From positions 704,001 to 768,000 of the forward strand of contig CM000436.1 of NCBI GenBank assembly GCA_000165345.1: a stretch of 64,000 nucleotides of DNA, written 5' to 3'. The notes under the pieces were generated by a model. That model worked only from the letters and a program-made list of their open reading frames with translations. It searched no databases and was not told where the DNA came from. Below are positions 20,301 to 47,960 of the stretch, in pieces. Every line of letters starts with the position of its first letter. Position 1 is the first letter of the stretch. Position numbers and translations under genes: made by a program.

Positions 20301-21124
20301 TTTACAGTTTGGTCAAACGTAAAATAGACAGATTCAGTATAAAAAAGCTCATTTCTGTATTTTACTATAGGAAGATATTCGCTGATATAATGCATCCTGA
20401 GTTATGGACTAGTCACAGGCAATATCCTTACCCTGACAAGTTGTCAAAGTATAAAGGATTCGAATTTGAATACTGTAAACTTGGAAGAAATGAAATGAAA
20501 GGAGGCAGAATAAACGAGGATTTATTTACTATCATACATGCAGGCAATAATAAAGATCCTGATAACGTGGAATTGATGAATTCTATTCACCAAAGTTTCC
20601 AAGAGTCATCTAAAAGAAATAAGATTCTGCTGGAGGATATGGGTCCCACAAAGTTATATAGATATTTAGACTCACTTCCTTATGATAAACGCTTAAATAT
20701 CAAGAAATCAAGTATTCATGGATTTGGGCTCTTTGCAAAAGAACTGATTAAAACAGGAGAGCCAATTATTGAATATGTTGGCGAGCTAATACGTAATAGC
20801 GTTGCAGATAAAAGAGAAAGTCTTTATAAGTCAAACGGAAATCGGGATGGGTCATGCTATATGTTTAGGCTAGATGAATCCAGCGTAATAGATGCGACTA
20901 ATATTGGAAATCATGCCAGATTTATGAATCATTGCTGTGATCCAAATTCAATTTGTAAAGTTATAAGTATTGATTCGCAAAACAAGCATATTGTAATATT
21001 CTCCAAAAAAACAATTAATAAGGATGAAGAGATTACTTATGACTATCAGTTCAATGTTGAGGAGGCTTCAGAGAAAATTATATGCCATTGCGGTGCAAGC
21101 AATTGCCTTGGAAGGATGAACTAA
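14390..21124 (+). CDS. SET1/trithorax-type histone-lysine methyltransferase with PHD fingers and a bromodomain
   Basis: C-terminal SET: GFGLFAKELIKTGEPIIEYVGE...NIGNHARFMNHCCDPNSICKVI...EITYDYQF plus post-SET CHCGASNC. Several C4HC3 PHD-type clusters (e.g. CSICRKIWTSSWEGEWLQCDICKFWVHYDC). Bromodomain-like YWKVVKIPMDIMTV...YDSDEYSFIRDIFRIIYNAQISHMPN. Confidence 0.9.
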   Translation: MTVESARNSKRKGANTNFRDGELVGENKKRRCSHSSSSKNSNLQSKRRVQSRSRKNESCMNVFVQADDNNETELVKLNTIEIKNLKDGFKYVGYRCRVAVSRQKTKELKNNSPNAFNWVEGIIKFWDPKFKLFFIHFLLSPSINSFRNINNTPKHEWKYLATQNNSPPANTDIRNLVLSPFAIDRGWFDPNPITMKLYGSLPLKDISSISFQDKAELTKSEKFSSEVCTRCKLPIVEEEVIYSCELCSRKFHQNCVNMSNTSIQDLKDSDITTLRQYNSPNNLELLLIANEHNQYIRERKRLWKRNYNVSHDSEGNLSLYNKCFNDGQLPYDLVDVEELERALPNEVKKIILENYNMSHTGIRKLLSKLPDKMGSIIGDHQVKLLCRNYRYNKRNKSIMLTQSYKEEDYSSTITSLESTPSKICSRNEPSVQKSDLIDDIDSKSVFNKGEYNSESSFIETMELEKTDFTKDENNPIQISIDDAKDEQLKTNEYKYRCKDCIPCIYCKEPLLRIPVILKPNELPNRSLVYSQIPTKLEEFVVCGTCGICYHGSCGNSFVPPLLFGGNNFNCSNCCKCIHCGYRDNGFMDYASWDSTFSSCIRCCKGFERGQFCSICRKIWTSSWEGEWLQCDICKFWVHYDCDKDLNEPIEFYSNVKNLYNCPACRSNDNSVKYQRILDHFICLDKNKDFASTPLPSYQNYWKVVKIPMDIMTVTNNLESKKYDSDEYSFIRDIFRIIYNAQISHMPNHRIFKLAANILKKITHLFKLLFGENLLLRFFNVIKKEESSMSILVEQIDTNDLRSKIGDEIFENTNSNINVKLSQDYRANNLSCENNVENELAIDLAEAVLNHTKLNLDISGNLRNTISRKQFSCLKGDNNLNSVFGKLFAEFKKCTICQQKSDELLHCLKCGVNIHSKCSEVVNGSFVCNSCTACHICSELMADSSIPVISCYTCNKRVHYTCIWQDYERFIEQSKYSDIPSRNKKRNEGGYNFANLSGNLKDNRDYICLWKIISSTASPNKSKVLINSPLTAVFGKGYYQYLINEIYLCTECFEAKRYLHSNLFMQKYANEYNRFLFTKVVEFQKLIDEIITKDFSEIYFSEGTKEREINKILETISRVELKPFDMSFKEENIIICNLCSDRFYCKDFEDLVEIANDNAICSVSLNYICNNCNKLSNKISKNQYYKKNVELPQANIITMAQESLKEPTYPNSNFPLILNTLISASQFRVTLSKDVDLLLRVILSPFLDQSISVIKKYELYLEIDKENIRSDIINKYFNSVYFARIIKQTLQSSLLQWFLFYIHQNGLFDFSNLRKDYLQHFYKQNNVSLDDLIQNNTISVIIASIEKMVLSNDLNSKTNQNKLIKNNLYDPDYLSFLGLYSNLLFPASNFQMFGLGNLNLMNYQAIIDTKMYLEINDSFKEYVLNYQNSQRNSILVTKHKALKDEITQGLTLIKDQIEMDKQEFKLPKLSFFVLIYSFILSKLSKIDDNFSGVDSNRCKYCGRSQNLLLGDQLINVLENVALHKECVLWSLPFVLEPILNNLDMGYESKFETNKKKSEIYSPKYPTFGSISWPILRKPIHVDINDIIITLNDLNALKCFFCGNSGATIKCSGNDKCFKYYHIDCIFKGFQKNNFEYYSSYQFNNIFREESNSNLDLSISTDKESMIHIRLKYRRVWCNECWGIYKTIIEPETSFSEGLTGGILNTFVSMLLVDIKIVNNFEFQERLQIVNKNTIIDSFIEKIITVFSTKKKYNSKIKTLIQKLKRIRDSIQYSDLKFESNIVNNSIILLDPGVIIENKDFVDGKEIMIFLVNYRALRIWKSCRIINNIFEIDNALSLYLCSTFEINGSVRFQIDWIPTTHFEMKKVNEWLITNDFKDDEFWSKIYINGICHKLFGIPLLRDINLKNLFNSFSELLCSESLKDVSRSTFECIIYPNYLSSNSYLDYSNTKKMQFVSDCDARSQIFFGFREEFIYSLVKRKIDRFSIKKLISVFYYRKIFADIMHPELWTSHRQYPYPDKLSKYKGFEFEYCKLGRNEMKGGRINEDLFTIIHAGNNKDPDNVELMNSIHQSFQESSKRNKILLEDMGPTKLYRYLDSLPYDKRLNIKKSSIHGFGLFAKELIKTGEPIIEYVGELIRNSVADKRESLYKSNGNRDGSCYMFRLDESSVIDATNIGNHARFMNHCCDPNSICKVISIDSQNKHIVIFSKKTINKDEEITYDYQFNVEEASEKIICHCGASNCLGRMN

Positions 21125-25785: not shown

Positions 25786-25920
25786 TTTAGGACAAGAACC
25801 CGCCTATAGTTGGAAATCGAAGTCCTTAATAACTGATAATTAGAATAGAAGAGGCTGAAACTATTACATAGTTTGCTGATAGCAAAGAATTCCAACTATT
25901 TAGTTTATCCAGCTTTATGT

Positions 25921-29847
<3,927 letters not shown>

Positions 29848-30053: not shown

Positions 30054-30411
30054 ATGTACCTGGATAAGAAAATACTATATTGGTGTACAATTCCCGTTAC
30101 CATATTAGTTTTTTGTGGAGTTATTTTAAGAACAATTCTTCAAACATCCTCGCAAAAAAAGAAAAAGAAAAGGTTGCCTTTTAAGAATGAGAAAAATTTG
30201 AATGATTGCTTGATGTCCACTCAACGCGTGTCTTTGAGAAATCAAGAGTTCCAAAATCACCTCAATAGGAGTGCATTAATAAGGTCTAGAAGATTTTTAA
30301 TTCCAGAAGATTCATTTTTGAAAAGAAAGCTGTTTTATTGTGAACTAGAGAGTGGATATTTTCATAACTCTCCAGAATCTCCAAGCCCATTGGCTGCACT
30401 CTCAAACCCAG
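30054..30411 (+). CDS. small multi-pass membrane protein, exon 1
   Basis: ATG at 30054. Hydrophobic ILYWCTIPVTILVFCGVIL then basic linker. Donor CCAG|GTATGT at 30412 (phase 1). Confidence 0.45.
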
Positions 30412-30480
30412 GTATGTTTACGTGCTTAATTCTTATGACTTCATAATTTTTCAACAATTTAGACCACTCTGCACTTACAG

Positions 30481-30791
30481 ATATGATGAAAAACCAATTT
30501 GGGTTTCTGATTTTGAATGGAGGGATGGGATACTTAGTCAACACATTATTTTCGGGATTTCTAGTTGTTTATATTCCTTTCCCACTTTCTTATTCATTTA
30601 AGGGAATGCTTCAAAGAGGAATAGAATCAAATCCAAATATAAGCGCCTCATTTTTGTCAGCTCTATCATTTTATTTCATTGCATTACTCTGTTGTGGAGA
30701 GGTTGTTCATCTTTTCCTTTCTATTATTGGGTTTGAAGGAGTTTCAGGTCCGCAAATTGATCTACCAATGATGAATCAGCAAGGTAAGTAA
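30481..30791 (+). CDS. same gene, exon 2 (after a 69-nt intron 30412..30480)
   Basis: Acceptor CACTTACAG|AT. G+AT completes codon GAT and joins track ORF 30483..30791 in frame (hydrophobic ...FLILNGGMGYLVNTLFSGFLVVYIPF... SFYFIALLCCGEVVHLFLSIIGF). The stop TAA is embedded in CAAG|GTAAGT, so a further downstream exon is possible. Confidence 0.4.
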
Positions 30792-31176
30792 ATCATAAAA
30801 TTTTCTTAAAAAAAAAAATTTGCCGTAGTTTCTCCTCTGGGGAATCAAACAGATTACTCTAAGCTCTTTAAAGAAGAGGTAGAGTCATTACAGATTACTG
30901 TAAGTTTTTGATAGATAATTGCAAGGCATTTTAACTTAAATTTACCTACAGCCAATAGAATGCGCGCTAGACCAAATGGAAGAGATGGCAATAAAACTGC
31001 TAGAAATTTGAGTTAACGTGTACACGGATTGAATTGCTCTATTTTTCGTGTGCTAGTTAACGAATTTTTTAATTGCTATAAAATACTAACCTATTTCTGT
31101 TTTAACCCCGTTGAATTTTAAAAGCTTCCAAATAACTTTTGAATTGGTGTTTTTTGGATTCAATTGCATGTATAAT

Positions 31177-31183
31177 GGCGCCC
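31177..31183. promoter_or_regulatory. GGCGCC box (plus TTGCATG at 31164) about 720 bp upstream of the giant gene
   Basis: TGGCGCCCCCC is a GC island in AT-rich sequence. Confidence 0.3.
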
Positions 31184-31901
31184 CCCAAAACTAATAATTC
31201 CCAATTGCTAACTAAAATTTTAAAAAATGATTTAGTATTTATATATTTAAATGCATAGCTTACGATATATCTAATTTCTTTCTGCATTTTTCACGGCCCT
31301 ATAGCTATTAGAAATTTGAATTTATTTGAATGTGCCAGTAACAAGGAATTAGTAGAACACTATAAAGATGTAAGGGCTTAGACATGTAATGCACGCAGTT
31401 CTTGTCTTGTCTAACTTAACCACACTTTTTATCGAATAAATTGATAAATAATACCCCATTAACGCCATATCGTGGGATAGTTGGAATATTCCATTTAATT
31501 TGAATTTTTGTTCGTTTTATTCATATTAAAACATATTTTGAGGAGATACAATTTACGCTATTCGAGATTGTACACTTTTTAAAGTGAATTGCCAGATTCT
31601 TACTACATTGAATATTTCTGGATAATTCCGGTGAAAAAGTCTAACAACTTATTTTTCAGAAAGCAGTACATATTCTCTAAACTATTAATAACTTTAATAG
31701 CTTTAAACAATTTTCATCTATTGCTTTTGGCGAATCTTGAAATTTGAATAATTTCTAGATCTAAGAGTTTTGCAGTTTGATATAAAGCGTTCGTTATTAA
31801 TCCAATAAAAATTTCAATTTCTGGTAAACTTGAATATTGTATAAGCTAATATTTATATACAAACTTAAAAATAAAAAAAAATATATTTAAAGCTATTAAC
31901 T

Positions 31902-34900
31902 ATGAGCGACAATTTACAATCAGAAAAAATTAATCAAGACTCCAGCCCGAGAGAGTCTAAATTTACCGAAATAAAAATCAATTCTGGTGAAAACCCAGTA
32001 CAAATTAAAAAGGACTGGCTCCTTGAATACAGAAATGGGTTGAGCTCCGAAGAAATGCAGCAGAGACAGATTGAAGGTAAATCATATACTATGCCATTAC
32101 TTAAGGCAATGCTCTTGAGTCACTACAACCGCACAGCATGGAATAATGCCGAAAGCCAGGTTAAGTATTCAAATATTAAAAATGGCCAAACTACTGATGA
32201 ACTCAGAGAAATTTCTCAAAGATTAATGGTAGATGAAGATAACAGTGCGAGAGTTCTTTTAGAGAGGAAGTACTGTATGAAGAAGGTTGGACTGTTAGGA
32301 AAATTTTCACCGCGCTGGTTCATTTTCAAGGGTACGAATTTGGCTGTTTTCCATTCAGCTCATGAGGAAACCCAACCAAAATTCTACAGCTTAGTTGGTG
32401 CAGCATATGAAGTTGAAGATAGAGATTCTTCTCCAAACAAAACATTATGGGCAACCCCAATAGAAATTATTTCTGAAGATGGAAATATTGTGCATAGTGA
32501 TGCAAAGTACAGGCTCTCTGTAGTTACAAAAGAGCCAAAAGTAAGACACTTTTGCTTGTACAGTAATAAGAAAGAGGAAATTGCAGATTGGGTAAAAGTT
32601 TTCCATGTTGCCAATTTAAATTTGGATCCAAGCCAAGCAGCATTGATTTCTAATGTAATTACTAGAATTGCTCAGAGAGATGTCCCTTCGGCATGGGAAG
32701 CATTAGTTTATGAGGCAGAGAACAGGGCGCATAGAGAAACAATGTTAAGGTGTTTTGTTAATAGACTTAGATACCTCAAGGCCACAAGAGTCCTCAATAA
32801 GTGGCAAACTATCTATAAGGTACAAAACAAAGATTCCAATGAGGGGTTAAAGTTGTTAGGTAGGGAGGTTATGCTAGGTAGACTTTATCGCCGCGACAAA
32901 TTGTTAGTTAGAACTAGCCAACAAAGAGAAGCAATTATTGAGCTTATCCAAGAAGGATATAGAAGAGAAAAGAGCAAAAGCCAGGCTCAAATGAAAGCTT
33001 CTACTGAGAGCATTGAAACTACTGATAGCGACGCAGCTGCCATTGCTGCTACTTCTGAAGGAGCACAAATTAAGCAGGGTCAACAAGGGCGTGATTTTCC
33101 AACTGTTTTTTACGTCAACCCATCAATAGAGAAGTACCATTCCAAAATTTTGGATAGTAAGGAACAATCAATTAAATCAAAATACTCTAAGCATACAATT
33201 ATTCCTACATACCAGGAGGATGCAAATGTTAGGATTTCGAGTGATTTAAGCAGGGTTATTTGGGCCCCAAAAAAGTGGGAATCTGTTGGAAATAAGAATA
33301 TGTTTATCGATGTAGATTCAATATCATCGATTATTGTTAATGCATCAAAGCCCTCATATGCATCAAAGGGACTATACTCTGCTCCTAGTATAGTTAGCGA
33401 ATATGATATCGCTGAATGCGTTGATGAGTATGTATACAGTATGACTGATTCTTGCTTCTCTCATATTGCAGATAAGGAGAAAAGAGAGAGAGACCCACAA
33501 AATAGAATCACTACTGGTAACTGGTTGGCTATTTGCGGTCCAAGATTAGGATTTAAACCAGCATATTCACCAGATTTCCTGATCCGTGATACGCCTGTAG
33601 TTGTTATGAAAGTTAATATCAACATTAAATCTATCAGTTTAAATGAGAGGTTCTCTCGTCTTTATACAGAATATTATCAATATTATGCTGATGAATTGCA
33701 AGAAATGACTCCTTATGAGAAGACAACCACAATGGCAGCCTTAACTTATGGTGATAACTCTCAAACCACCAAATTGAACACCATCAAATCTTTGGTTTCA
33801 AACGTCCAAACAAATGAAGAAATAGTACGTGATTACGGCACAATGACAAGTAGCATCTCTAGCATTAGGAGACTATTTACAGCAGCATCAAACATTGATA
33901 ACGAAACAATTGAAAATAATCTTAAGGAATCAGGATCTTCAAACTTTGAAAATCAAATTAAACCATCAAACTCTACAGTTGCATCGATAAGAAACCTTTT
34001 CACAAAAAATATTTCAAATGTCAAAGATTTTAATTCTCCAAGATCATCACCAGTAAGATCTCAGACGAAATCTGCAACTGTTACAGGCACAAAACCCGCA
34101 AGGCAAATTGATGGATTAGTGCTCCCTCCAGAACTAAGTGTTATTGATCCATTTAAAACAGTCCAGGTTGAAAGAAACCTAGAGATAAGGGATAGCACAG
34201 TTCAAACATATCTAAGAATTACAGCCTTTCATCAATCTTATACATCTGCTCATGCTGTAGGCGTTAATCCAACATATGACTTGAATTTTTGCGTTGATGT
34301 CCCATTGATGACATCAAATGCTTCAAAAGAGATGATTAATGAGGCAAGAATCAAAGCTATGGAAGATGCTATTTGTACAGTCGACCTTTGGGTTAAGTCG
34401 CCAATTGATTGTGTTCCGGATGAACTTATTGCATCTATTGATATTCCTCTAAAGGAATTGAGCAACAGTGATAGACTTTCCAGACAAAGATCTCAGTTTA
34501 TTGCTGCTGATTCATTCATTCTTAAGCAACCAGTTCCTGATTTAAAATCTAGTGTTAGTGGCAATTCAAGAGCAATTCAAATACTTAAATATTTGGGTCT
34601 TCTAGATCCAAGTAGCGAAAATTTGGAAGATTTACCACTTGGTCAATTGGATATTTCTGCTGATTCAGTCATTGAGACATCAATTATGGGAGAAAACCCT
34701 ATTTCACCTGAAACTATTTGTTTAGGTGGTCTTCAGGGTCTTTCTTCTTATTCAATTGATCAGTCTACAAATCAAAATATCAGACAAAAGAATGGAGATT
34801 GTGTTGAATTATATATTGGGCAAGTAAAACTTGATCCAAATTGGACTCCAGGTCTGTACTTTGTTGAAGTTATTATGGGAGATGTTAGTTGTATGACTCA

Positions 34901-37900
34901 CTTAGTTCAAACAAGATACGATTCAATTTCTGCTGATTTCCGTTCTCATCTGTATATTCCAAGATATGATAATCAACTTGGAGTTGATCCAAAGTGCTTA
35001 CAAATATTGATAAGACGTGCATTGGGAACTGAAGATAGATGTTCCTCATTGGCTAGGTTACTCCAAGATTCTGTTATAATGGGTGAGTTAATTGTAGACG
35101 TCACAAAGTTAACGATGAATGAACCACACAGTAGCAATGGACTTTATGCTGTCTTCAAACCAACTACATCTGCACTCTATGGAAGTAGAGGTTTGGATTA
35201 TGCTTTAGAAATAGCCCAGTTGGGGCCAAAATCTGATGAGTTGCAAGAAGCAAAACAACACATCATGTTAGATGTTCAAATTAGAATGATGATCACATTG
35301 AGAAGAAAAACAGACGTAACATTAAAAAAAGTAATTGATCAATCAGATGACTTTAAATTAGTGGGTGATACTGCGCTACTAGTTGTAGAAGAAGAGCTGA
35401 AATATCCAATTTCGCAAAAAGAATTCCATGTAAAATGCTGCCCTGGTAATTTTGATACATTAAAAGCTGGAACTCTTGGATTGCCATTAAGATCAGTTGG
35501 AAACTATATAGAATACGAAATTGGAGGGTTCCAAGAAAATTCAGATCAACAAATCAACGATTTGAATACTCTAAACAAATTCGAGAACGATAGCATTTTA
35601 AACGAAGAATTAGAAGCTATTGATGCTCAGCCAGTTCCGTTATATGCGAGCGATCCAGTACCTGCTCAATTCTATCTCCCGGAAGATCCACGCACATTTA
35701 GAAGCCGTAAGTTACCAGGTATTTGGCATCGAATATTGGCTGATGGATTTAGACCAGGGGAACGCGTAACGAGACTTACACATCGTGTTAGATATGTTCC
35801 AGTTACTATTATTGCAATATATAAAAACAGGACTGCTTTGTGCAGATGGGCAGAAAATGTTTCTATAAATCCAACAGAATTTCCTGAAGGCTGTGTATTC
35901 ATCCCAGAACAAAGATTAGTCATGGGCGTTCCGCTTTCATTTCTTTCAACCCCACATAAAGCTGGTATTCATGTATATGATTCGACTATCACTAGACTAC
36001 CGGATAACAGTATAACATTGTTAAGTGATATAACGAACTATGGTGGATACATGCCATTGAGCGTTAACCCAATATTCTGTGAATATGAATGGGTACTCTG
36101 GATTAAGGCAGAGACCCCTCAACAAATGACTTTATGGGCAACAATTATTAGGAATACTGTAAGAGAAAGAGCATTTAGACGTGTTAGGGCATATGAAAGA
36201 ACCAGAGATATAATGAATAATGAAGAAGAGGTTGAAAATAATGATTGTAAAGCTTCTACTTCCATGATCTCAAGAAATTCGAATGGTCAATCATACTTAG
36301 AAAAACGATATGACAGTGGAGAATTAGAAGTTGTAGTACATAGCTCAAAGATTTTGTGTAAAAGTAATCAATCATTAAACTTTTATTCAGTTTTCCAATG
36401 GGCAAGAATACCAAAACAATTATACGAAATGATTGAAAATGAAGGAAATTATGATGTTAAGAGTAGTATTCGCCAAGCAATAAAAAGAATTATTGAGGAA
36501 AGTATTCTTGGATTTAATATGAAAAATAGAAGTTCAGTTACCGACCAATTGACTCCTCAAGAATTGAGGCCTGCACCAATAGATATGAGTACTGCAAAAC
36601 TGCATGCAAGCTATATTCCATTTAGTCTTTCAACTCAAATAAAAGAGAATAATTTGTACTCTGTTGATAGGATAAAAGATGAATTCTTAATTTTGGTTAC
36701 AAAAATAACATTCAGTTCTTATTACCTTTCAAATCTATGCAAAAATGTTTTACCAGATGAAACTTCTCCATATGTAAAGAATTCGAAGGAAGCCAAATTA
36801 TTGGATAAGATTAGCGGCGAATTGGTTGGCGTAGTTCCTGACAAACTAGACAAAAATAAGTTGACAAATGAAGTTTATAATACATATAGATGTAGGTTTT
36901 ATAATAACAAAGATACGTGCGAACAGGGAGGAAGTGTATTCAGTACAACTCATATTGATACAAGTGATGAAGTTCCACTTTTAATTATTAAACTATTCCA
37001 AGAGTCAAATGATGGTTTGGATACATTTATTGGCCATGTAATATTGAATACTGTTGATTACCTGACTCCAGAAAATCCATTCCAAATTAAATACAAAAAA
37101 ATCAATCCAAGATATACTTATATTGTTTCTGCTTCAGGTACCGGTGGTAAGATGTATAGTTTTGATACAGTTCCTGATGCATTAAACTTTGTAATGTCCC
37201 AAAATAAAGAAATAACTGTTGAAGAATTTTATAGGGCATTATATGGAGAAACAAATCAAGCAAGAAGAATTCATGGTCCATGGAGAGTCAGAGTGCAAGA
37301 AAATATTGAATACCATGGTGACGTTTGTTTAATGGTTAGATATGGCCCCACTGATATTCGGCTATTGACAGAATTCCAACCCACTGCTAATGATTATAAG
37401 GAACATATCTTAGATTATCATAGAAAGCAATTTGATGACAGTGGTATTCCATATATTCATACAGTTTATGATCCCAATACACCATTTGCAGTTAAGATAG
37501 CAAGAATATTCGGGAACAAGTTTGGTCAATTGAATGGAAATGTTTTTGATTTGTTAAAGAAATATTCAGATGACACGAAAATGCTTAAATTGATACAAAT
37601 GTATTTATTAAGACCAGCTGAACAATGGGTTTACGAGAGAAGTCTTTATGAACAAATGTTATTCTTAGAACCATTGACAGATTTAATCGAAAAGCAGAAT
37701 ATGACAAGATGGAAATATTTATTAGCAGATTCTAATAATAGAGGTTTACAACAATGGGAACAACTATACCGTCAAGGTTTATTATTGCATAAAGTTGATG
37801 AATTATCATATGATAGTTGGTCTATATTAGTAAATGCTAATGTTCGTGACCGTTTGCCATCGATTTTACTTGAATTATGGAATGGAGAAGAATATTTAGG

Positions 37901-40900
37901 TGAATATTTATTGCCTTCGTTGTCATCCTTACTATTAAGTAAGATTAACACTACAGTTAGGCTACATACATCTGCTTTGGCTAGAGAAAATGATAAGAAA
38001 ACACGTTATGACATCCGAAAGGAAAATTTAACAAGTTCAAAATTGTCTACATTTATAAATATGGAAATTAGTTGGAGAATCAAAAGCACGACTGAAGGTA
38101 TATTTGGATTGATAGTAAAAGATGTCAGAAATGTTGTTTCTGAATTAACAGATGACTTAAATGAAATTAAACCTCAAATACATGTTTATCAGTACTTTTC
38201 AGATAACGATCAATGGAGAATAATGGAAATAACTAAGCCTAGTATTGCTACAAGAACAATTTTGGGCATCGAAACTCCAGAAAAATTAAAAAAACAAAAT
38301 ATTGAATGGAATAATGTTTTTGTTTATAGCCGAGACAGAATTGTCGATCTTCAGTTCCCAATATCAATTCCTGCTATGGTTGAATCAGTCCCAATTGTAT
38401 TTAACTTTAATGAATTGTTGCTCTCAGATAATAATAGTATCAAATTAGACAAAGATGAAAATAATGAGGTTGTTGAAAAAATATGGTCATTATTGAAATC
38501 AGGAGTTCCAAACTATTATCGTCCGTATATTTGGATGCAGCTAAGCGGCGCAAATGACTTAAAGAACTCAATCCAGAAAAAATGGCAATCGTTGAATGAT
38601 TCAAATAAATGTGGTCATGACACGTTATTCTCATATTTAATTGAGTATGCAGATACATGTAATTCTTGCGTATTGAGGCAGTTAGATGAAGATATTGAAT
38701 CAGCGAAAATACGTTATCACATGTGCGAATCAATATTGGGCATTGATCAAGTTCATACTTTCTGGGAAAATGTCCGTTATATTATGAGAGCATTAATTGT
38801 TTTCTCATTAAGAAAGAAGTATAATATTTATAACTGCGAAAAATTCCATGTTGGATTGCCATTACAATATGCATTTGGCCTATTATCCTTAACTATCGAA
38901 TTATTAATGAATTTTGGTGGTGTCTGTTTAACTCCAGAAGATGTTTTCTATCTAGTTTATTCTGTGTGTGGTTCTAGGCATAATATTTATTTAAAATCTA
39001 ATAATGAAGAAGATAAAAAAGATGAAAATAGATCTTTGAAGAATAAGAAATTGATAAAAGGTGCTCTATTGCCTTATTATACAACAGAAGAACAAGAAGA
39101 TGATTTAAACAATGATATGCCTGCGCAGATTAATGATATCATTTTCTTAAAGAGTGCTTTAGAATTACTACATCCATTTGAATACGATAATATGTTAGCA
39201 TCCGGGTTTCAGCTTGAAGAAATATTTTATGGATGTCTAACATCAATATTTGCAGGCTCATTACCATCTTCAACAATTACACAATTGTATGATTTATTGT
39301 TCAATGTATACTTCCAACCAAAAGATATTTTCATGAAAAGAGGAGAGCACCATCATAAACATGATCATAAAAATGATATTGATTATAATGATAATAAAAT
39401 AAATATTTCACTTAGTAGGCGTATTTTAATATGCTTATCTTACTTTATCATAACAGAATCATATCGTGAAATTAATATCAACCCATTGATTTCTTCTAAG
39501 TGTATTCGTGAAACTATTAAATCTACTATGGCTACTATGAGAGATCCATTAGAAATGGTACACGGTATTGAAAGAGCTGATTTTATCATTTTTGGAAACA
39601 AGAAAATTTATGAAACTATATTAAAATTATATGAGACATATATTATTTCATATCAAGAATCTTTATGGTTTTCGAAAAAGCAAAATTCGGTGTTAGAAAA
39701 AATGATCAATATGACCCCATTACAAAATCAACATGGTAGTGATGCACCTTCACATTTAGGAATGAGATTCATTGGAGGAAGATATGTACCCAAGACTGTT
39801 GCTTCTCCTGGATTATCACTAAAAGATTTAACAGAGTCATTATATCCATTAATTAAATTCCAAGCACTCTATGCGGGGAGAAATCTGCATCAATTACCAC
39901 CTGGAATTGCTGGTTATGTAATAATAAAAATAGATGAAGTACGTGAATTTGCCAAATATAATGAACCCATATCTCCGGTAGTTTGTGTGAGAATGGACCA
40001 ATATAAAGTTGCAACAGACCCTGCAACTGAAAGATGTTCTAGATCATTTATATGGAAATCAAATAACGTATTTATGTTCCCAATACCGATTTGGAAATCT
40101 CCTACACAAAAGAAAAATTTAAATGGACGCAACAGCTATCATTTACATAAAGAGTCATCTGAGTCTGAAATGCCGTTGACCGTTGAAATTTTTATCGAAG
40201 TTTTGGATTCCGAAGCGCTTGATGATGAAAATAAATTATTGTGTTCAGCACAATTAAGTTTAGACAGGTGGTCAACTGACGGTGGTAGCTTATCATTAAA
40301 TGGTGATGATGGAACATTAGCAATATATAATGATTGTAATAAAATGAGCTTACTATTTTCATGGTATACATATGTACCAAATAGTGAGTTGGACACAAGC
40401 GCTTTATTACCATTTTCATTTGGAAAACAACAATGGGGTGATTATGGTGGCTACCACTGTATCTATGCACCAGTTAATGTAGAGTCATATAGGAATGAAT
40501 TGCATTCCGAATTAAAAGAGGAAAAATTGAAAGAATGGGAATCAGAGCCAAGACAAAGCGTATTAGATATTATTCGTGGTCATAGAAAAATGGATGAGAG
40601 TGGTGGAAATTTAGATGCTTTACCAACAATGAGATCCATGTATCCCGGTAAATTGGAAATCAGCACTGGAAAGTACGGCCCAACTAGATCGCAATTGCAA
40701 CAATTGTTTTTCTTCTCAGCTCCTTCTCTTTTACCATACGTTGACGAGATTGTCGAGAGTTTTGCAAAAATATCTATGAACTCATCAGAGGAGAAGGTTA
40801 CATTAACCCCAGTACCTTTAAGAGAACTCATTGCATCCATTATTTTATGTTCCCGTGGTACATTAAGCGAAAAAGCCAATTTATTATTTGATTTATTTGG

Positions 40901-43900
40901 CTATGATGATGCAAATCGATTGTCTGTAGCATTCCATTCAATGTATTATTCTCATACTCCTCAGTATCCAGCGGCTATTCAAATTGGTTCCCAATTAAAT
41001 ACTCATTTACCAGTTGAGGTATCTGATAAACTAGGTGTTGCTCCTTCAAATGTAATTTCACTAGCAGGCGTGGCAGCAATAGTACAAACTGCATGCATAC
41101 GTTCAAATATACCATTAGATAATGTTGGAATTTACCAAATTACAGCTTCAGTATTTGACCATTATTTCGATGTACCTAGTGTTGTAAAAGCATTGATTAT
41201 ACCTCCTAAGGGATATGATGGGCGTGTATCTAAGGAATATATTACACATAATTATCGCAATTTGAAGTATGATACGAGCTCAATATCAAATACTGAAGAT
41301 ATTACAATAGATAATATGAATATTTTTAGTGATTGCAAAGGAAGTAAGGGTATCTTTAACTCAATTAATTGTATGAATGGTAAAAGTGTTAAAGAAAATG
41401 CATACTGGTATAACATCGATCATATGATTGACAGTAAATTTATTTTGGATGTATCGAGATCCATAACACACCATATTAGAAAAAATGCATCTTTGGAAGG
41501 GTTATTTGGAATTGATTTCTCTGTTCATACTTGCCTAAGGCATTTTGATATTAATGATCCTTTCCCAGGTTTAATTAAAACATTAAGAATAATTATTAGT
41601 GGGAAGAGAAGTAAACATGAAATTAGAATAATTGATCTAACAATTGATGAGAAAGGCCACTTTATTGATTCAAGAGTACAATATGGTACAGAAACTAGTG
41701 ATGATTTGCACACGACAGATGTTAGAGGAGCAAATCAATTCAGACAAGCATTTGAATCAGGTTTAGCAACTGTCGATTTCCCAAGACTGTTGTTTAGTGA
41801 CGGAGCTGCAAATGGTAAAGAAAGAGTGCCTACTGCTAGTTTTGTCTTCAATCTACACAATATCTTAATTGATAAATATAGTTTTGTTACAAAATTCTGT
41901 GATTTCACATTAGTAACAGAAGCAATAAGGAGAATAACTGCTAATGATCGTACATGCGAGCCTAATCGATATCTTAAATTAAATGTAGAAGTTAATTTAA
42001 CCCTCGAAGAAAACAGATCTTATCCTCACTACAGCGTTGATGAAATCCTAGGCGTTCCATTAAAAATAATGAATAATAATGACGAGCTAGCAAATCAATT
42101 AAGCCAATCTCTAGTAATCTCTGGCTCAAATAATAATATTGGTAATCAAAGTCAGAGAAGTGTTATTTCAATGAATGCCTCAACATTAATGAATGAAGAT
42201 GGATACATGACTCAAAGATCAATGATTTCAACTAATTCAAAACAAGTATTCGAGCCGTCTTTATCGGTGCATTCTTCAATGCCTTTATTAACAGAGGGTG
42301 AAGACACAAATGAAGATGTTGGTTGTCAAAGTATAGAAGCAGAGAAGTTGAAATCAGGTATTTCATTAACGAGCAGCAATAGCATTGCTAAAGGTGAGAT
42401 TGAAAAGATGTTATCAAAGAAATCTACTTTAGTTGGAGATGAAGAATTGGAAAAAATGGTTTCAAACAATTCATATCAAGACAATAACGTTAATAATGCC
42501 GAAAAGTTGCCGACAAGAACGGAGAGTAACTCAGGGGCTGTATTAAAGCAAGCTTCTACTGCAACTTCTAGGATTGCTGCTTTGTTTATGACTAGGCAAT
42601 CTTCATTGTTTAATTCTCTATCATTCAATAATGATGGCGAAAATAATAAAGAAGCCGACGGTACTTTAGATTCTAAATTGAATTCTATTGCTAAATCATC
42701 TTCAAAAATTTCTGATGAAGAGATAAATAAAATAGAATCAACTTCTATTCCAAGAAATAAATCTTACAATATTGATGAAGATGAGGAAGAGCTTAAAGTG
42801 GATGAAGAAGAGGAAATGTTATTGCAACAACAACAATTATCTTCAGCAATTAATTCATTTAACTCTAAAAGAATAAATTCTCAAACAAGTCTACTTAGCG
42901 CAGTAAGTCGCGGCGCATCAACTGTAAATCTATGCCGTACATTCACTAGAGGAAATTTTGGCTCATATTATGAGGCTGAAGGCAAGACAGAGTATCAGGT
43001 TGATATTCCTTTTAGACCACCAGGCCAGGTAGAAGAGAGGCATAATATTAGAGTTTATTTGGCTGACAGCATCCGTGTTTTAAAGAATAAGGTAATGGAA
43101 GCTTGCAAATCAATTGCTCAAAGGTTACAAGAAAGTGGAATTGATAATGGATTGTATAAAGAGATTGTATTAGGGCCACATCATGTAGTTGAGCTAGTTG
43201 TTACTGACTTTGATGGCCATATTCGTTATTTGCCTTTATTAAATGAAACAAACTCTATTGAAGACTATATTCTTTCAAATGAAGATTTACTGCAAGAATT
43301 TATAACTTCGAATATGAATAGCATTCTTAACATCAGAATCATTCCACCAAAGAATTTACAAACAGAGAAATCAACTAGAATCGTTAATGAGATGCAACAC
43401 GAAAGTGGTGGAGCTTGTATTACAAGTATGTATTTGGCAAATGAGCTTGCAAACCACGAAATATTGGAAGATGGATTATTAGTTAGGAACCCATTAGGGT
43501 TTAGAACATATTTCCATAAGGCTCATTATGAAATAAGAAACAAGATGATTGAAATTGAACCGGGAAAAGTGGTATCTTTGGATAATTTATGTTTTGTAAG
43601 AAAAAGTAATACAGTACTAAATAACCTAGCAGCATGCATAAATTTAGATTGGAATGTTGATGAATGGGTTCCAGCAGTTGCAATTAGAGGAATTAATACA
43701 TTCTTGGATGAACTTGAAGGCATTCATTCTGAGTCGGTGCGTGGCCGCACATCTAGAATTCCGCAAGCAGTATTAAGTGCATCGTCAACGATCGGAGGGT
43801 TTATGCCAGTAACATTAGGAGCATATAACCCAATTTCTGCTGCGTTTGACTATGGTTATGGAGCAAGAAATGGAAGCATATCTGTTTCAAATAATCATAG

Positions 43901-44444
43901 AAACTTTGGAAATGGATCTAGTACAAAGAGGTACAAAACTGGAACGAATTCGGGCACTAAGAAATTTGGAACGACTACAACTGGTATAGCCAGTACAAAC
44001 CAACCTTCTAACTCTGTATCTTCAAAGATTAAACCAGAAGATATGATCACATCTGTTTATGGATGGGATCTATGCTATGAAGTTATTCTATTAGATTTCC
44101 ATGACTTGATGATTGAAGGAGGAATCAATACAAGAGAGTCCATTTGTGTAACTGAAAATGATGTTATTTTCTGTTTCAAAAATCCAAGTGTAAGGCAGCA
44201 ATTCGAGATTACTCAACTTACTACGGACGAAAAAATTAGAATTATGTCTCTTTCTGAATCAGGGATGTGCCCTCAAAGAATTGCGCTCGAGCTATCTGAA
44301 GACAGAGTTGCTGCATTAAAGAGTGGCTCGTACTCTATGCTATATAATAATCAACCAAGAGCAGTTGTTGTACCACACCAATTAGTTTCTGAATTTTTGA
44401 GAAGGTTCAGAGCAGCAATTGAAGAAGACAAACATATTTTCTAA
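31902..44444 (+). CDS. giant (4180 aa) multidomain protein: N-terminal PH-like domain, central TBC/RabGAP-like segment, possible C2-like segments, C-terminal HTH-like segment
   Basis: Single uninterrupted 12.5-kb ORF. PH-like LGKFSPRWFIFKGTNLAVFHSAHEE...KTLWATPIEI...ADWVKVF at residues ~120-240. TBC motif-A-like GVPNYYRPYIWMQLSG at ~residue 2200, with the YxQ position degenerate (LQYAFGL). C-terminal LTTDEKIRIMSLSESGMCPQRIALELSEDRVAALK. Confidence 0.85.
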   Translation: MSDNLQSEKINQDSSPRESKFTEIKINSGENPVQIKKDWLLEYRNGLSSEEMQQRQIEGKSYTMPLLKAMLLSHYNRTAWNNAESQVKYSNIKNGQTTDELREISQRLMVDEDNSARVLLERKYCMKKVGLLGKFSPRWFIFKGTNLAVFHSAHEETQPKFYSLVGAAYEVEDRDSSPNKTLWATPIEIISEDGNIVHSDAKYRLSVVTKEPKVRHFCLYSNKKEEIADWVKVFHVANLNLDPSQAALISNVITRIAQRDVPSAWEALVYEAENRAHRETMLRCFVNRLRYLKATRVLNKWQTIYKVQNKDSNEGLKLLGREVMLGRLYRRDKLLVRTSQQREAIIELIQEGYRREKSKSQAQMKASTESIETTDSDAAAIAATSEGAQIKQGQQGRDFPTVFYVNPSIEKYHSKILDSKEQSIKSKYSKHTIIPTYQEDANVRISSDLSRVIWAPKKWESVGNKNMFIDVDSISSIIVNASKPSYASKGLYSAPSIVSEYDIAECVDEYVYSMTDSCFSHIADKEKRERDPQNRITTGNWLAICGPRLGFKPAYSPDFLIRDTPVVVMKVNINIKSISLNERFSRLYTEYYQYYADELQEMTPYEKTTTMAALTYGDNSQTTKLNTIKSLVSNVQTNEEIVRDYGTMTSSISSIRRLFTAASNIDNETIENNLKESGSSNFENQIKPSNSTVASIRNLFTKNISNVKDFNSPRSSPVRSQTKSATVTGTKPARQIDGLVLPPELSVIDPFKTVQVERNLEIRDSTVQTYLRITAFHQSYTSAHAVGVNPTYDLNFCVDVPLMTSNASKEMINEARIKAMEDAICTVDLWVKSPIDCVPDELIASIDIPLKELSNSDRLSRQRSQFIAADSFILKQPVPDLKSSVSGNSRAIQILKYLGLLDPSSENLEDLPLGQLDISADSVIETSIMGENPISPETICLGGLQGLSSYSIDQSTNQNIRQKNGDCVELYIGQVKLDPNWTPGLYFVEVIMGDVSCMTHLVQTRYDSISADFRSHLYIPRYDNQLGVDPKCLQILIRRALGTEDRCSSLARLLQDSVIMGELIVDVTKLTMNEPHSSNGLYAVFKPTTSALYGSRGLDYALEIAQLGPKSDELQEAKQHIMLDVQIRMMITLRRKTDVTLKKVIDQSDDFKLVGDTALLVVEEELKYPISQKEFHVKCCPGNFDTLKAGTLGLPLRSVGNYIEYEIGGFQENSDQQINDLNTLNKFENDSILNEELEAIDAQPVPLYASDPVPAQFYLPEDPRTFRSRKLPGIWHRILADGFRPGERVTRLTHRVRYVPVTIIAIYKNRTALCRWAENVSINPTEFPEGCVFIPEQRLVMGVPLSFLSTPHKAGIHVYDSTITRLPDNSITLLSDITNYGGYMPLSVNPIFCEYEWVLWIKAETPQQMTLWATIIRNTVRERAFRRVRAYERTRDIMNNEEEVENNDCKASTSMISRNSNGQSYLEKRYDSGELEVVVHSSKILCKSNQSLNFYSVFQWARIPKQLYEMIENEGNYDVKSSIRQAIKRIIEESILGFNMKNRSSVTDQLTPQELRPAPIDMSTAKLHASYIPFSLSTQIKENNLYSVDRIKDEFLILVTKITFSSYYLSNLCKNVLPDETSPYVKNSKEAKLLDKISGELVGVVPDKLDKNKLTNEVYNTYRCRFYNNKDTCEQGGSVFSTTHIDTSDEVPLLIIKLFQESNDGLDTFIGHVILNTVDYLTPENPFQIKYKKINPRYTYIVSASGTGGKMYSFDTVPDALNFVMSQNKEITVEEFYRALYGETNQARRIHGPWRVRVQENIEYHGDVCLMVRYGPTDIRLLTEFQPTANDYKEHILDYHRKQFDDSGIPYIHTVYDPNTPFAVKIARIFGNKFGQLNGNVFDLLKKYSDDTKMLKLIQMYLLRPAEQWVYERSLYEQMLFLEPLTDLIEKQNMTRWKYLLADSNNRGLQQWEQLYRQGLLLHKVDELSYDSWSILVNANVRDRLPSILLELWNGEEYLGEYLLPSLSSLLLSKINTTVRLHTSALARENDKKTRYDIRKENLTSSKLSTFINMEISWRIKSTTEGIFGLIVKDVRNVVSELTDDLNEIKPQIHVYQYFSDNDQWRIMEITKPSIATRTILGIETPEKLKKQNIEWNNVFVYSRDRIVDLQFPISIPAMVESVPIVFNFNELLLSDNNSIKLDKDENNEVVEKIWSLLKSGVPNYYRPYIWMQLSGANDLKNSIQKKWQSLNDSNKCGHDTLFSYLIEYADTCNSCVLRQLDEDIESAKIRYHMCESILGIDQVHTFWENVRYIMRALIVFSLRKKYNIYNCEKFHVGLPLQYAFGLLSLTIELLMNFGGVCLTPEDVFYLVYSVCGSRHNIYLKSNNEEDKKDENRSLKNKKLIKGALLPYYTTEEQEDDLNNDMPAQINDIIFLKSALELLHPFEYDNMLASGFQLEEIFYGCLTSIFAGSLPSSTITQLYDLLFNVYFQPKDIFMKRGEHHHKHDHKNDIDYNDNKINISLSRRILICLSYFIITESYREININPLISSKCIRETIKSTMATMRDPLEMVHGIERADFIIFGNKKIYETILKLYETYIISYQESLWFSKKQNSVLEKMINMTPLQNQHGSDAPSHLGMRFIGGRYVPKTVASPGLSLKDLTESLYPLIKFQALYAGRNLHQLPPGIAGYVIIKIDEVREFAKYNEPISPVVCVRMDQYKVATDPATERCSRSFIWKSNNVFMFPIPIWKSPTQKKNLNGRNSYHLHKESSESEMPLTVEIFIEVLDSEALDDENKLLCSAQLSLDRWSTDGGSLSLNGDDGTLAIYNDCNKMSLLFSWYTYVPNSELDTSALLPFSFGKQQWGDYGGYHCIYAPVNVESYRNELHSELKEEKLKEWESEPRQSVLDIIRGHRKMDESGGNLDALPTMRSMYPGKLEISTGKYGPTRSQLQQLFFFSAPSLLPYVDEIVESFAKISMNSSEEKVTLTPVPLRELIASIILCSRGTLSEKANLLFDLFGYDDANRLSVAFHSMYYSHTPQYPAAIQIGSQLNTHLPVEVSDKLGVAPSNVISLAGVAAIVQTACIRSNIPLDNVGIYQITASVFDHYFDVPSVVKALIIPPKGYDGRVSKEYITHNYRNLKYDTSSISNTEDITIDNMNIFSDCKGSKGIFNSINCMNGKSVKENAYWYNIDHMIDSKFILDVSRSITHHIRKNASLEGLFGIDFSVHTCLRHFDINDPFPGLIKTLRIIISGKRSKHEIRIIDLTIDEKGHFIDSRVQYGTETSDDLHTTDVRGANQFRQAFESGLATVDFPRLLFSDGAANGKERVPTASFVFNLHNILIDKYSFVTKFCDFTLVTEAIRRITANDRTCEPNRYLKLNVEVNLTLEENRSYPHYSVDEILGVPLKIMNNNDELANQLSQSLVISGSNNNIGNQSQRSVISMNASTLMNEDGYMTQRSMISTNSKQVFEPSLSVHSSMPLLTEGEDTNEDVGCQSIEAEKLKSGISLTSSNSIAKGEIEKMLSKKSTLVGDEELEKMVSNNSYQDNNVNNAEKLPTRTESNSGAVLKQASTATSRIAALFMTRQSSLFNSLSFNNDGENNKEADGTLDSKLNSIAKSSSKISDEEINKIESTSIPRNKSYNIDEDEEELKVDEEEEMLLQQQQLSSAINSFNSKRINSQTSLLSAVSRGASTVNLCRTFTRGNFGSYYEAEGKTEYQVDIPFRPPGQVEERHNIRVYLADSIRVLKNKVMEACKSIAQRLQESGIDNGLYKEIVLGPHHVVELVVTDFDGHIRYLPLLNETNSIEDYILSNEDLLQEFITSNMNSILNIRIIPPKNLQTEKSTRIVNEMQHESGGACITSMYLANELANHEILEDGLLVRNPLGFRTYFHKAHYEIRNKMIEIEPGKVVSLDNLCFVRKSNTVLNNLAACINLDWNVDEWVPAVAIRGINTFLDELEGIHSESVRGRTSRIPQAVLSASSTIGGFMPVTLGAYNPISAAFDYGYGARNGSISVSNNHRNFGNGSSTKRYKTGTNSGTKKFGTTTTGIASTNQPSNSVSSKIKPEDMITSVYGWDLCYEVILLDFHDLMIEGGINTRESICVTENDVIFCFKNPSVRQQFEITQLTTDEKIRIMSLSESGMCPQRIALELSEDRVAALKSGSYSMLYNNQPRAVVVPHQLVSEFLRRFRAAIEEDKHIF

Positions 44445-44601: not shown

Positions 44602-46332
<1,731 letters not shown>

Positions 46333-46586: not shown

Positions 46587-47960
46587 TTATTCAGTTCCAA
46601 AGTATCGATCAGCAAAACAACCTAATCCTGGAATTACAAAACCATCAGAGTTAACATCACGGTCAATTTCAGTCGTAATTAGAGTTACCTCCGGGAACTC
46701 TTTACATATTCTGTGTATTGCATTGTGAGCAACAATAAGACTAAGAACAATAATTTTACGCTGCAAAACCCCCTTTGATAACAAATATTTAATTGCAGAA
46801 AATACCCCAAATCCATTCCCAAGAATAGGATCCAAAATAAATACATTCCTTGAGGCAATATCATCGGGTAATTTGCAATAGATAATCTTAGGTTTATCAA
46901 ACTGGGCATCAAGTTCCGTTTTAGGATTTTGGAACTCCAGTAGAATTTTTCCTATTGGGATATCTTTACAAACAGCAGATAAACCTATTTCCATACTTTC
47001 TCCTCCTCTAACTATTGAGACCGCGCAGAGTTTATCCTTGTAATTAAATTGCACTCCGTCGTAAAGTTCTCCAATAGGTGTTTCAATTGTTTGACCAGTA
47101 AAAGACAAATGGCTAAGAGCATTTTCGACGACCAGTCGAATTAATCTATCTGACCAAAAGACAAAGTCCACCACTGATGTATCCTTATTCCTTATAATAG
47201 AGTGCATATGGCGTATTTGACAATTAGAAGGAATAATATGCAAATTAGAGTAAATTTTTCTTAAATCATCCATTTTTAACTTGTATCTAAGATGTTGTAC
47301 AACAAGGTCAACAGCAACTTCATTTGGATAATGCGGAATTACGATATCTGCATATCTTCTAGTCGGATAAATGAATTCATCATAGGATGGCTTAACCGTT
47401 TTCTCATATTGATTAAGAATATCGTCAATTTGTCTGCCTCTCTCAATAGTATCTCTTCTTATTCTACGTACAAGACGAATATCATCGTCCGTATCGACAA
47501 AAATTGACATATTTATAAGATGTCTAATTTTTGGATGGAAAAGAATAAATATGCCTTCAACAATAATAATAGATGCTGGAGAAACCTTCCTTCCTGTTTC
47601 CAATCTCTTATGTTGTTTAAAACAGTAGTTAGGGATGTGAACCCCTTCCCCGTTTTTCAAACTTAGTAAAACATTGTATAGAAGTTCAAAGTCCACAGAA
47701 TTAGGATGATCAAAGTTGTAGTCTGCCATAGTTTGCCCCTCTTCTAAGACAGGAGTTTTATAAAAACTATCAGTCTCAATTACCGTAACTCGTTTATCTC
47801 CTAACTCTGAAAAAATTCTGGTACATACGCTTGTTTTTCCGCTTGCACTTCCTCCTGCAACTGCAATAACAAAAACATTTGAATTGCTGCTAGGCGTTAA
47901 AGCTTGATCGCCATAATATATGTCTTTAGAAATTAATTTTTCAAGACTGATATTAGACAT
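46587..47960 (-). CDS. bifunctional uridine kinase / uracil phosphoribosyltransferase (UK-UPRT fusion)
   Basis: N-terminal P-loop VIAVAGGSASGKTSV and the uridine/cytidine-kinase core. C-terminal UPRT fold with VFILDPILGNGFGVFSAIKYLLSKGV (PRPP-binding region). The fusion architecture is known for Cryptosporidium pyrimidine salvage. Confidence 0.85.
   Translation of the reverse strand: MSNISLEKLISKDIYYGDQALTPSSNSNVFVIAVAGGSASGKTSVCTRIFSELGDKRVTVIETDSFYKTPVLEEGQTMADYNFDHPNSVDFELLYNVLLSLKNGEGVHIPNYCFKQHKRLETGRKVSPASIIIVEGIFILFHPKIRHLINMSIFVDTDDDIRLVRRIRRDTIERGRQIDDILNQYEKTVKPSYDEFIYPTRRYADIVIPHYPNEVAVDLVVQHLRYKLKMDDLRKIYSNLHIIPSNCQIRHMHSIIRNKDTSVVDFVFWSDRLIRLVVENALSHLSFTGQTIETPIGELYDGVQFNYKDKLCAVSIVRGGESMEIGLSAVCKDIPIGKILLEFQNPKTELDAQFDKPKIIYCKLPDDIASRNVFILDPILGNGFGVFSAIKYLLSKGVLQRKIIVLSLIVAHNAIHRICKEFPEVTLITTEIDRDVNSDGFVIPGLGCFADRYFGTE

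Follow-up and report, generated by a model that had tools for sequence, protein, structure and literature searches.

cgd8_2790 of Cryptosporidium parvum encodes a giant PH domain protein with a predicted TBC domain that lacks both catalytic fingers

TBC domains that keep their fold without the catalytic arginine and glutamine, and that serve as binding modules, are known from TBC1D7, a subunit of the TSC complex, and from TBC1D23, a golgin-endosome vesicle tether. TBC1D8/TBC1D9 combine a GRAM/PH-like domain, a TBC domain and an EF-hand. The structure of a TBC domain from a Chlamydomonas flagellar Rab GTPase-activating protein (RabGAP) has been solved (PDB 4p17), and myzozoans possess a lineage-specific TBC group, TBC-X2, which clusters with archaeplastid TBC-PI (Klinger et al., bioRxiv 10.1101/2022.12.12.520010). 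Here we compare with these systems the product of cgd8_2790, a gene of Cryptosporidium parvum lying in a window of 64,000 nucleotides (nt) (GenBank assembly GCA_000165345.1, contig CM000436.1, positions 704,001 to 768,000 of the forward strand; coordinates below are those of the window). On balance we favour the view that this protein is a TBC-family scaffold of very large size, cytosolic and peripheral to membranes, which combines a PH domain with a TBC domain devoid of fingers and serves vesicle traffic as an effector, a tether or an organiser.

31902–44444 (+): single-exon gene cgd8_2790, one open reading frame (ORF) from ATG to stop, 4180 amino acids (aa).

A preliminary description of the window had announced a 12.5-kb ORF for a 4180-aa protein. 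The frame was found on the plus strand, and every motif string quoted from it occurs in the translation where it had been placed: FSPRWFIFKGTNLAVF at aa 135–150, ADWVKVF at aa 228–234, GVPNYYRPYIWMQLSG at aa 2201–2216, LQYAFG at aa 2321–2326 and LTTDEK...AALK at aa 4106–4140. The product is identical to C. parvum Iowa II EAK89463.1 (4180/4180 positions), and its computed mass of 475.45 kDa is the same as the value for cgd8_2790 in PMC9508764; because of these two agreements we equate the ORF with cgd8_2790. EAK89463.1 carries the public name "PH domain containing protein", so that the PH domain is already annotated, and the assignment of a TBC pseudoGAP and of a myzozoan family is modestly new. 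In the literature searched, PMC9508764 alone mentions cgd8_2790 in its main text. Neither a signal peptide nor a convincing transmembrane segment was found in the protein (in a hydropathy scan the top 19-aa window scored 1.67 and lay inside the TBC core), and its predicted location is cytosolic/cytoplasmic given the lack of both.

The features on which the comparison with TBC proteins turns are as follows.

38454–39626 (+): predicted TBC (Rab-GAP-fold) domain, aa ~2185–2575, with three low-confidence inserts, defined by the family profile and the AlphaFold2 model.
38502–38549 (+): TBC motif A (RxxxW), GVPNYYRPYIWMQLSG, with G2201, P2203, R2207 and W2211 invariant in the family.
38682–38702 (+): position of TBC motif B (IxxDxxR), reading LDEDIES, with D2264 invariant and S2267 at the arginine-finger position.
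38868–38876 (+): position of TBC motif C (YxQ), reading YAF, with Y2323 invariant and F2325 at the glutamine-finger position.

A degenerate TBC/RabGAP-like domain had been proposed for this part of the protein, and the family profile, the predicted structure and Foldseek all agree with it. When the family profile of the region was compared with the PDB, 9/9 matches were TBC domains, led by 4p17 (9.6e-14) and TBC1D4 (5e-5), with TBC1D1, USP6NL and TBC1D7 next. AlphaFold2, run on the family alignment, returned a model with a predicted local distance difference test score (pLDDT) of 79.7 and a predicted template modelling score (pTM) of 0.83; in a Foldseek search of the PDB with this model, the top 30 entries were all TBC domains (probability 1.0, target TM 0.42–0.74). 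The C. parvum sequence taken alone retrieved one chain from the PDB by phmmer, again 4p17 (RabGAP/TBC; E=0.0028), and the Pfam TBC family PF00566 scored 16.2 bits on it (E=0.0087; cut-off 25.2 bits). Based on profiles and modelling, we regard the assignment of the TBC fold as firm.

Motif A is particularly well preserved: its arginine and tryptophan are present in 19/19 covering sequences, and GVPNYYRPYIWMQLSG aligns to the nearly identical GVPPTLRNWVWMETSG of 4p17. The same string had been labelled as the IxxDxxR context of the arginine finger, which is a misassignment; the arginine-finger motif is LDEDIES at aa 2261–2267. The Chlamydomonas domain is by far the closest solved TBC domain both by profile and in Foldseek, where it ranks first; however, it is a green-alga domain of ~300 residues without the giant multi-domain context of cgd8_2790. 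The grouping of TBC-X2 with TBC-PI would suit a family of myzozoans that has its closest solved relative in a green alga, and membership of cgd8_2790 in that group is a lead only.

For the finger columns, 23 family sequences and fragments were aligned to the TBC profile. The motif B aspartate is conserved in 19/19 sequences, and the arginine-finger column three residues further on contains arginine in 0/19; its residues across the family are A, L, H, S, N, E, D, G, V or I, with Ser in C. parvum. At motif C the tyrosine is conserved in 21/21 sequences, and the glutamine column contains Gln in 1/21, Glu in 10/21 and K, F, S, Y, A or R in the rest, with Phe in C. parvum. The register at motif C was confirmed by the HMMER alignment, in which GYCQG of TBC1D4 falls on the family consensus aYses. 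As aligned, the TBC domain of cgd8_2790 lacks both catalytic fingers, and the loss extends across the family. A dead RabGAP had previously been suggested from LQYAFG at the glutamine position; comparison of homologues, which keep Asp and Tyr, takes this further, because the arginine finger is gone too, and the loss goes back further in time and is fuller than had been suggested.

We think it improbable that the protein is nevertheless an active Rab GAP relying on non-canonical residues, either the acidic residue or glutamine found at motif C in relatives or a nearby arginine (R2259, R2272). Such an enzyme would be in keeping with the intact TBC fold and motif A, with the frequent Glu and single Gln in the glutamine-finger column, and with two fragments that carry an arginine one residue ahead of the arginine-finger column (DLRELQ, DMRELQ). 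However, no arginine conserved in the family occurs anywhere between motifs A and C, and the Ser and Phe of C. parvum are incapable of the chemistry. The dual-finger mechanism, as Pan et al. reportedly found in 2006, requires both residues. In Toxoplasma, finger mutants of TgTBC9 are non-functional (PMC11101121).

The second domain relevant to the proposed role lies near the N-terminus.

32277–32606 (+): PH domain, putatively lipid-binding, aa 126–235, assigned by Pfam PF00169 and the family profile.

A PH-like block had been noticed here, and both Pfam and the matches to PH structures bear it out. PF00169, with a gathering cut-off of 25.1 bits, scored 27.8 bits (E=3.7e-6) on aa 101–260, 25.2 bits on aa 1–450 and 21.1 bits on the whole protein; the PH call is therefore supported, though borderline against the Pfam cut-off. 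A weak independent PH match in the Chromera homologue aligns to aa 138–236 of cgd8_2790. Searching the PDB with a six-sequence family profile (A5) gave PH structures in 11/13 matches, the best being Myosin X at 0.0024, with PLEKHA7, centaurin, Tec and TAPP1 among the others; the single-sequence search of the PDB with the PH region gave no PH match. Residues K127, R138, F140 and W230 do not vary within the family; W230, in the C-terminal helix (ADWVKVF), is present in 6/6 sequences. CryPH, the PH protein of the crystalloid body, was weighed as a possible relative and rejected, being a secreted protein of 287 aa and unrelated.

Homologues of cgd8_2790 are found well beyond the genus. Within Cryptosporidium, orthologues of at least 90% identity occur in C. 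hominis, C. tyzzeri, C. meleagridis, C. ubiquitum, C. canis and the chipmunk genotype I, and a second orthologue cluster comprises C. bovis, C. ryanae and C. xiaoi. Overall identity to the C. bovis orthologue is 82%, compared with a proteome-wide amino-acid similarity between C. parvum and C. bovis of 55.1% (PMC7371110 Table 1), so that the constraint on cgd8_2790 is unusually strong. With aa 2001–3200 as query, an exhaustive phmmer search yielded 27 cluster representatives, including full-length proteins of 3,000–3,600 aa from Porospora cf. gigantea, Gregarina sp., Chromera velia and Polarella glacialis, as well as further dinoflagellates and transcriptome sequences. Two of these bear names pointing to the domains discussed here: the Chromera velia homologue Cvel_6528 is called "C2 domain-containing protein" and that of Polarella glacialis "Rab-GAP TBC domain-containing protein". 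With this single divergent query, no NCBI-named protein from coccidia, haemosporidia or piroplasms was detected among the 27 matches. Queried with the whole protein, and likewise with the family alignment, a word-indexed homology search retrieved only two Cryptosporidium clusters, and with the TBC segment it retrieved none; as it missed sequences of its own query alignment, and a 491-aa sub-query missed its own cluster, its absences are not trustworthy for AT-rich proteins with low complexity, and we base no claim of absence on it.

A full-length alignment of 11 sequences (A1) is collinear from the PH domain through the C-terminus. Pfam recognizes C2 domains in 8/11 of its members (best 1e-87) and TBC PF00566 in 7/11 (best 1.4e-12). 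In gregarine homologues, the C-terminus of the Cryptosporidium/chromerid type gives way to canonical C2 domains in arrays of three to about eight, and, as far as the available sequences go, these proteins appear to be without an N-terminal PH region. Judged from these alignments, the loss of the fingers is ancient, being common to homologues of 3,000–4,200 aa in other Cryptosporidium species, gregarines, Chromera and dinoflagellates; the overall architecture is likewise ancient and strongly constrained.

Taken with the domain comparisons, this suggests how the protein might work. The structural motifs of the TBC domain are retained (RxxxW, the motif B Asp and the motif C Tyr), with S2267 and F2325 in place of the fingers; without the dual fingers, the domain would not accelerate Rab GTP hydrolysis by that mechanism. 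It may instead serve, in the manner of TBC1D7 and TBC1D23, as a platform to which a Rab or some other partner binds, and the PH domain, together with the C2 domains in relatives, would hold the protein to a membrane; the outcome would be the effector, tether or organiser role proposed above. We favour binding over inactivation of a Rab or other partner because of the analogy with TBC1D7 and TBC1D23, the structures of both being among the PDB matches of the profile and the model. The analogy concerns the fold and the missing fingers: no specific sequence relationship to cgd8_2790 was found for either protein (E ~5e-3 vs 9.6e-14 for 4p17), the gap in size is about tenfold, and the partner domains are unlike those of cgd8_2790, TBC1D7 being a single domain and TBC1D23 carrying a rhodanese domain and a C-terminal PH-like domain. 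In our view cgd8_2790 is a new, divergent member of the known finger-less TBC pseudoGAPs, and probably a fairly ordinary membrane-traffic scaffold.

Several points weigh against such a scaffold. For C. parvum itself the Pfam TBC score falls below the cut-off, so that the assignment depends on the family alignment and a predicted structure. The register at motif B follows from the canonical order and spacing of the motifs and from the LxxVLxAL-type helix that comes after, and not from a residue-level superposition. The Glu and Gln at the glutamine-finger column leave room for some residual or unconventional chemistry in relatives. Finally, a C2 domain could not be detected in the C. parvum protein, neither by Pfam (PF00168) in 18 overlapping segments nor by a hidden Markov model (HMM) of the family's own C2 repeats, which gave domain E-values of only 0.3–0.7; membrane binding would therefore fall to the PH domain alone.

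A bolder version of the scaffold can be formulated, to which we give a minor share of our confidence: cgd8_2790 might belong to an undescribed ancient family of giant (3,000–4,200 aa) finger-less TBC scaffolds, act as a Rab-binding organiser of a lineage-specific trafficking step or organelle, and be a candidate essential gene. The architecture of such a family, held equally tentatively, would consist of the PH domain, the TBC domain, a conserved C-terminal block and the tail, with C2 domains added in relatives.

Another possibility is a mainly structural role for cgd8_2790, in the oocyst wall or in another sporozoite or oocyst structure, with the PH and TBC domains as remnants without a role in trafficking. 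It is among the top-scoring proteins of an oocyst-wall-enriched proteome, together with COWPs and CCp proteins (PMC9508764). However, a protein without a signal peptide or transmembrane segment is not expected in the extracellular wall, and at 475 kDa it would yield many peptides and might readily contaminate such a fraction. The strong conservation of PH and TBC motifs across Myzozoa also argues that the function of these domains has been retained, and we consider a purely structural role unlikely, about as much so as an active GAP.

This protein's C-terminus deserves separate discussion, as a LuxR/psq-like helix-turn-helix (HTH) had been read from its last ~100 residues.

44217–44441 (+): C-terminal helical tail, aa 4106–4180, with helices predicted at low confidence at ~4108–4119, 4124–4140 and 4163–4175.
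43029–43211 (+): conserved C-terminal block, aa ~3710–3770, HNIRVYLADSIRVLKNKVMEAC...VVELVV, with H3714 and A3734 invariant in alignment A3.

The tail is 95% identical to that of C. bovis. In a MAFFT alignment, KIRIMSLSESGMCPQRIALEL...VVVPHQLVSEFLRRF was placed against dinoflagellate and chromerid termini such as QARSLRQSGKSDWEIENIL...PPKITVDIIQQYL. An hhalign comparison of Cryptosporidium and non-Cryptosporidium C-terminal regions gave a probability of 86.7% (E=4.3e-6) and was collinear to the last residues, most of the confidence residing in the upstream block at aa ~3710–3770. An HMM built from six non-Cryptosporidium tails had its sole match in the 4180-aa protein at aa 4114–4135, and a weak one (E=0.038). 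Gregarine homologues are without the tail. Judging by these comparisons, the tail appears to be a conserved helical feature of the family.

Searches for a DNA-binding fold were less rewarding. Pfam GerE (PF00196) gave no match in aa 4080–4180 or 4001–4180 at a maximum E of 10; the best Pfam match in the tail was the psq-type family CENP-B_N (PF04218), with E=0.11 and 12.6 bits where the cut-off is 21.2. Across the family, 0/8 C-terminal regions matched HTH families at E<=1. The C-terminal family profile matched only de novo designed helical-repeat proteins in the PDB, which indicates a generic helix-turn-helix-capping composition, and a single-sequence search of the PDB with the C-terminal region found nothing significant or HTH-related. 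The AlphaFold2 model of aa 3690–4180 has a mean pLDDT of 35 and contains low-confidence helices only. Beyond the second helix, where a recognition helix would be expected, homologues contain a K/E-rich linker of variable length and composition.

A genuine LuxR/GerE- or psq-type DNA-binding HTH in the last ~75 residues, through which a traffic protein would acquire the ability to bind nucleic acids, is very improbable: the two predicted helices with a Gly-containing turn between them, a few matching hydrophobic positions, the conservation of the tail and the sub-threshold CENP-B_N match give it some colour, but the GerE-like pattern written out in the preliminary description fits only with register shifts, neither profile support nor a conserved recognition helix was found, and the host protein is eukaryotic and cytosolic. 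The tail is probably a protein-interaction element.

Two further segments of the protein were annotated.

40794–40901 (+): possible neuronal calcium sensor (NCS)-type EF-hand remnant, aa ~2965–3000, LRELIASIILCSRGTLSEKANLLFDLFG, with a degenerate loop.
42099–42881 (+): low-complexity Ser/Asn/Glu-rich region, aa ~3400–3660, the least conserved part of the protein (49–67% identity to C. bovis).

The first of these (...LIASIILCSRGTLSEKANLLFDLFG) is among the most conserved segments in the family, with G2986, L2995 and F2996 invariant, and resembles the EF2-EF3 junction of neuronal calcium sensors. A profile of the segment (A4) matched EF-hand chains of KChIP, hippocalcin, NCS-1, neurocalcin, GCAP and DUOX in the PDB only at E 0.1–1.6, below top matches to G3BP1 (E 0.07). 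The EF-hand-like loop, GYDDANRLS, looks degenerate by eye when set against DxDxDG, and an insert of ~200 aa splits the EF-hand-like unit in dinoflagellate and chromerid homologues. The reading as an EF-hand remnant is suggestive only, and this affects the comparison with TBC1D8/TBC1D9. These proteins share with cgd8_2790 the order of a PH-superfamily domain, a TBC domain and possibly an EF-hand-like segment; no specific similarity of their TBC domains to that of cgd8_2790 was found, however, and their size and remaining regions are unrelated.

The low-complexity region occupies the place taken by a C2 domain in the Chromera and dinoflagellate homologues. At the other extreme, aa ~1150–1400 (window 35300–36200) show the highest conservation relative to C. 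bovis (92–95%) and strong conservation in the family, with the motifs GDxAxLxVEE..YP ... PGxxxRI ... PVTIxAVY and no Pfam match.

The sequence upstream of cgd8_2790 had been described as an unusually long region of ~2 kb, but it contains another gene.

30054–30791 (+): EMC3/TMCO1-like gene, separate from the giant gene, with exons 30054–30411 and 30481–30791.

Two plus-strand ORFs, 30054–30446 and 30483–30791, match consecutive halves of Pfam PF01956 (positions 3–84 in the first; 90–166 of 169 in the second, at 9.4e-15). An intron of 69 nt (30412–30480, GTATGT...TTACAG) joins the two frames. Introns are rare in the C. parvum genome, and this gene would escape scans that assume intronless genes. 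The true spacer between it and the giant gene is 30792–31901, about 1.1 kb.

Other genes of the window include a SNF2/ISWI-type chromatin remodeller at 25873–29847 (+) (SNF2 3e-90, Helicase_C), whose long Glu/Asp homopolymer tail (~29600–29800) gives rise to spurious ORFs, both in its other frames and on the complementary strand. Downstream, a gene at 44602–46332 (−) encodes a protein of 576 aa in which Pfam recognizes six LNR (Notch/LIN-12) repeats (1.3e-36) and is convergent with the giant gene, the two stop codons being 157 bp apart. The remaining neighbours are ordinary genes of eukaryotic type: a uridine kinase-UPRT fusion at 46587–47960 (−), a 2244-aa protein with SET, bromodomain and PHD domains at 14390–21124 (+), and a ferlin C-terminus with a C2 domain near the window edge at 61821–63983 (−). 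The window is AT-rich (~30% G+C), and ORFs lie densely along either strand. Scanning it for Rfam families and tRNAs returned nothing, and megablast against phages gave no match.

The gain for the biology of the parasite is incremental, as dead TBC domains are well known. With the HTH idea set aside, a false trail towards a "transcription factor" disappears. The trafficking machinery of Cryptosporidium is strongly reduced, and annotation is missing for most of its very large genes; recognition of a pseudoGAP would give one of them, cgd8_2790, a concrete role, in which a Rab is bound and not inactivated. A protein found in abundance in oocyst preparations, and conserved far beyond the average for the genome, would also be linked in this way to a family common to gregarines, chromerids and dinoflagellates.

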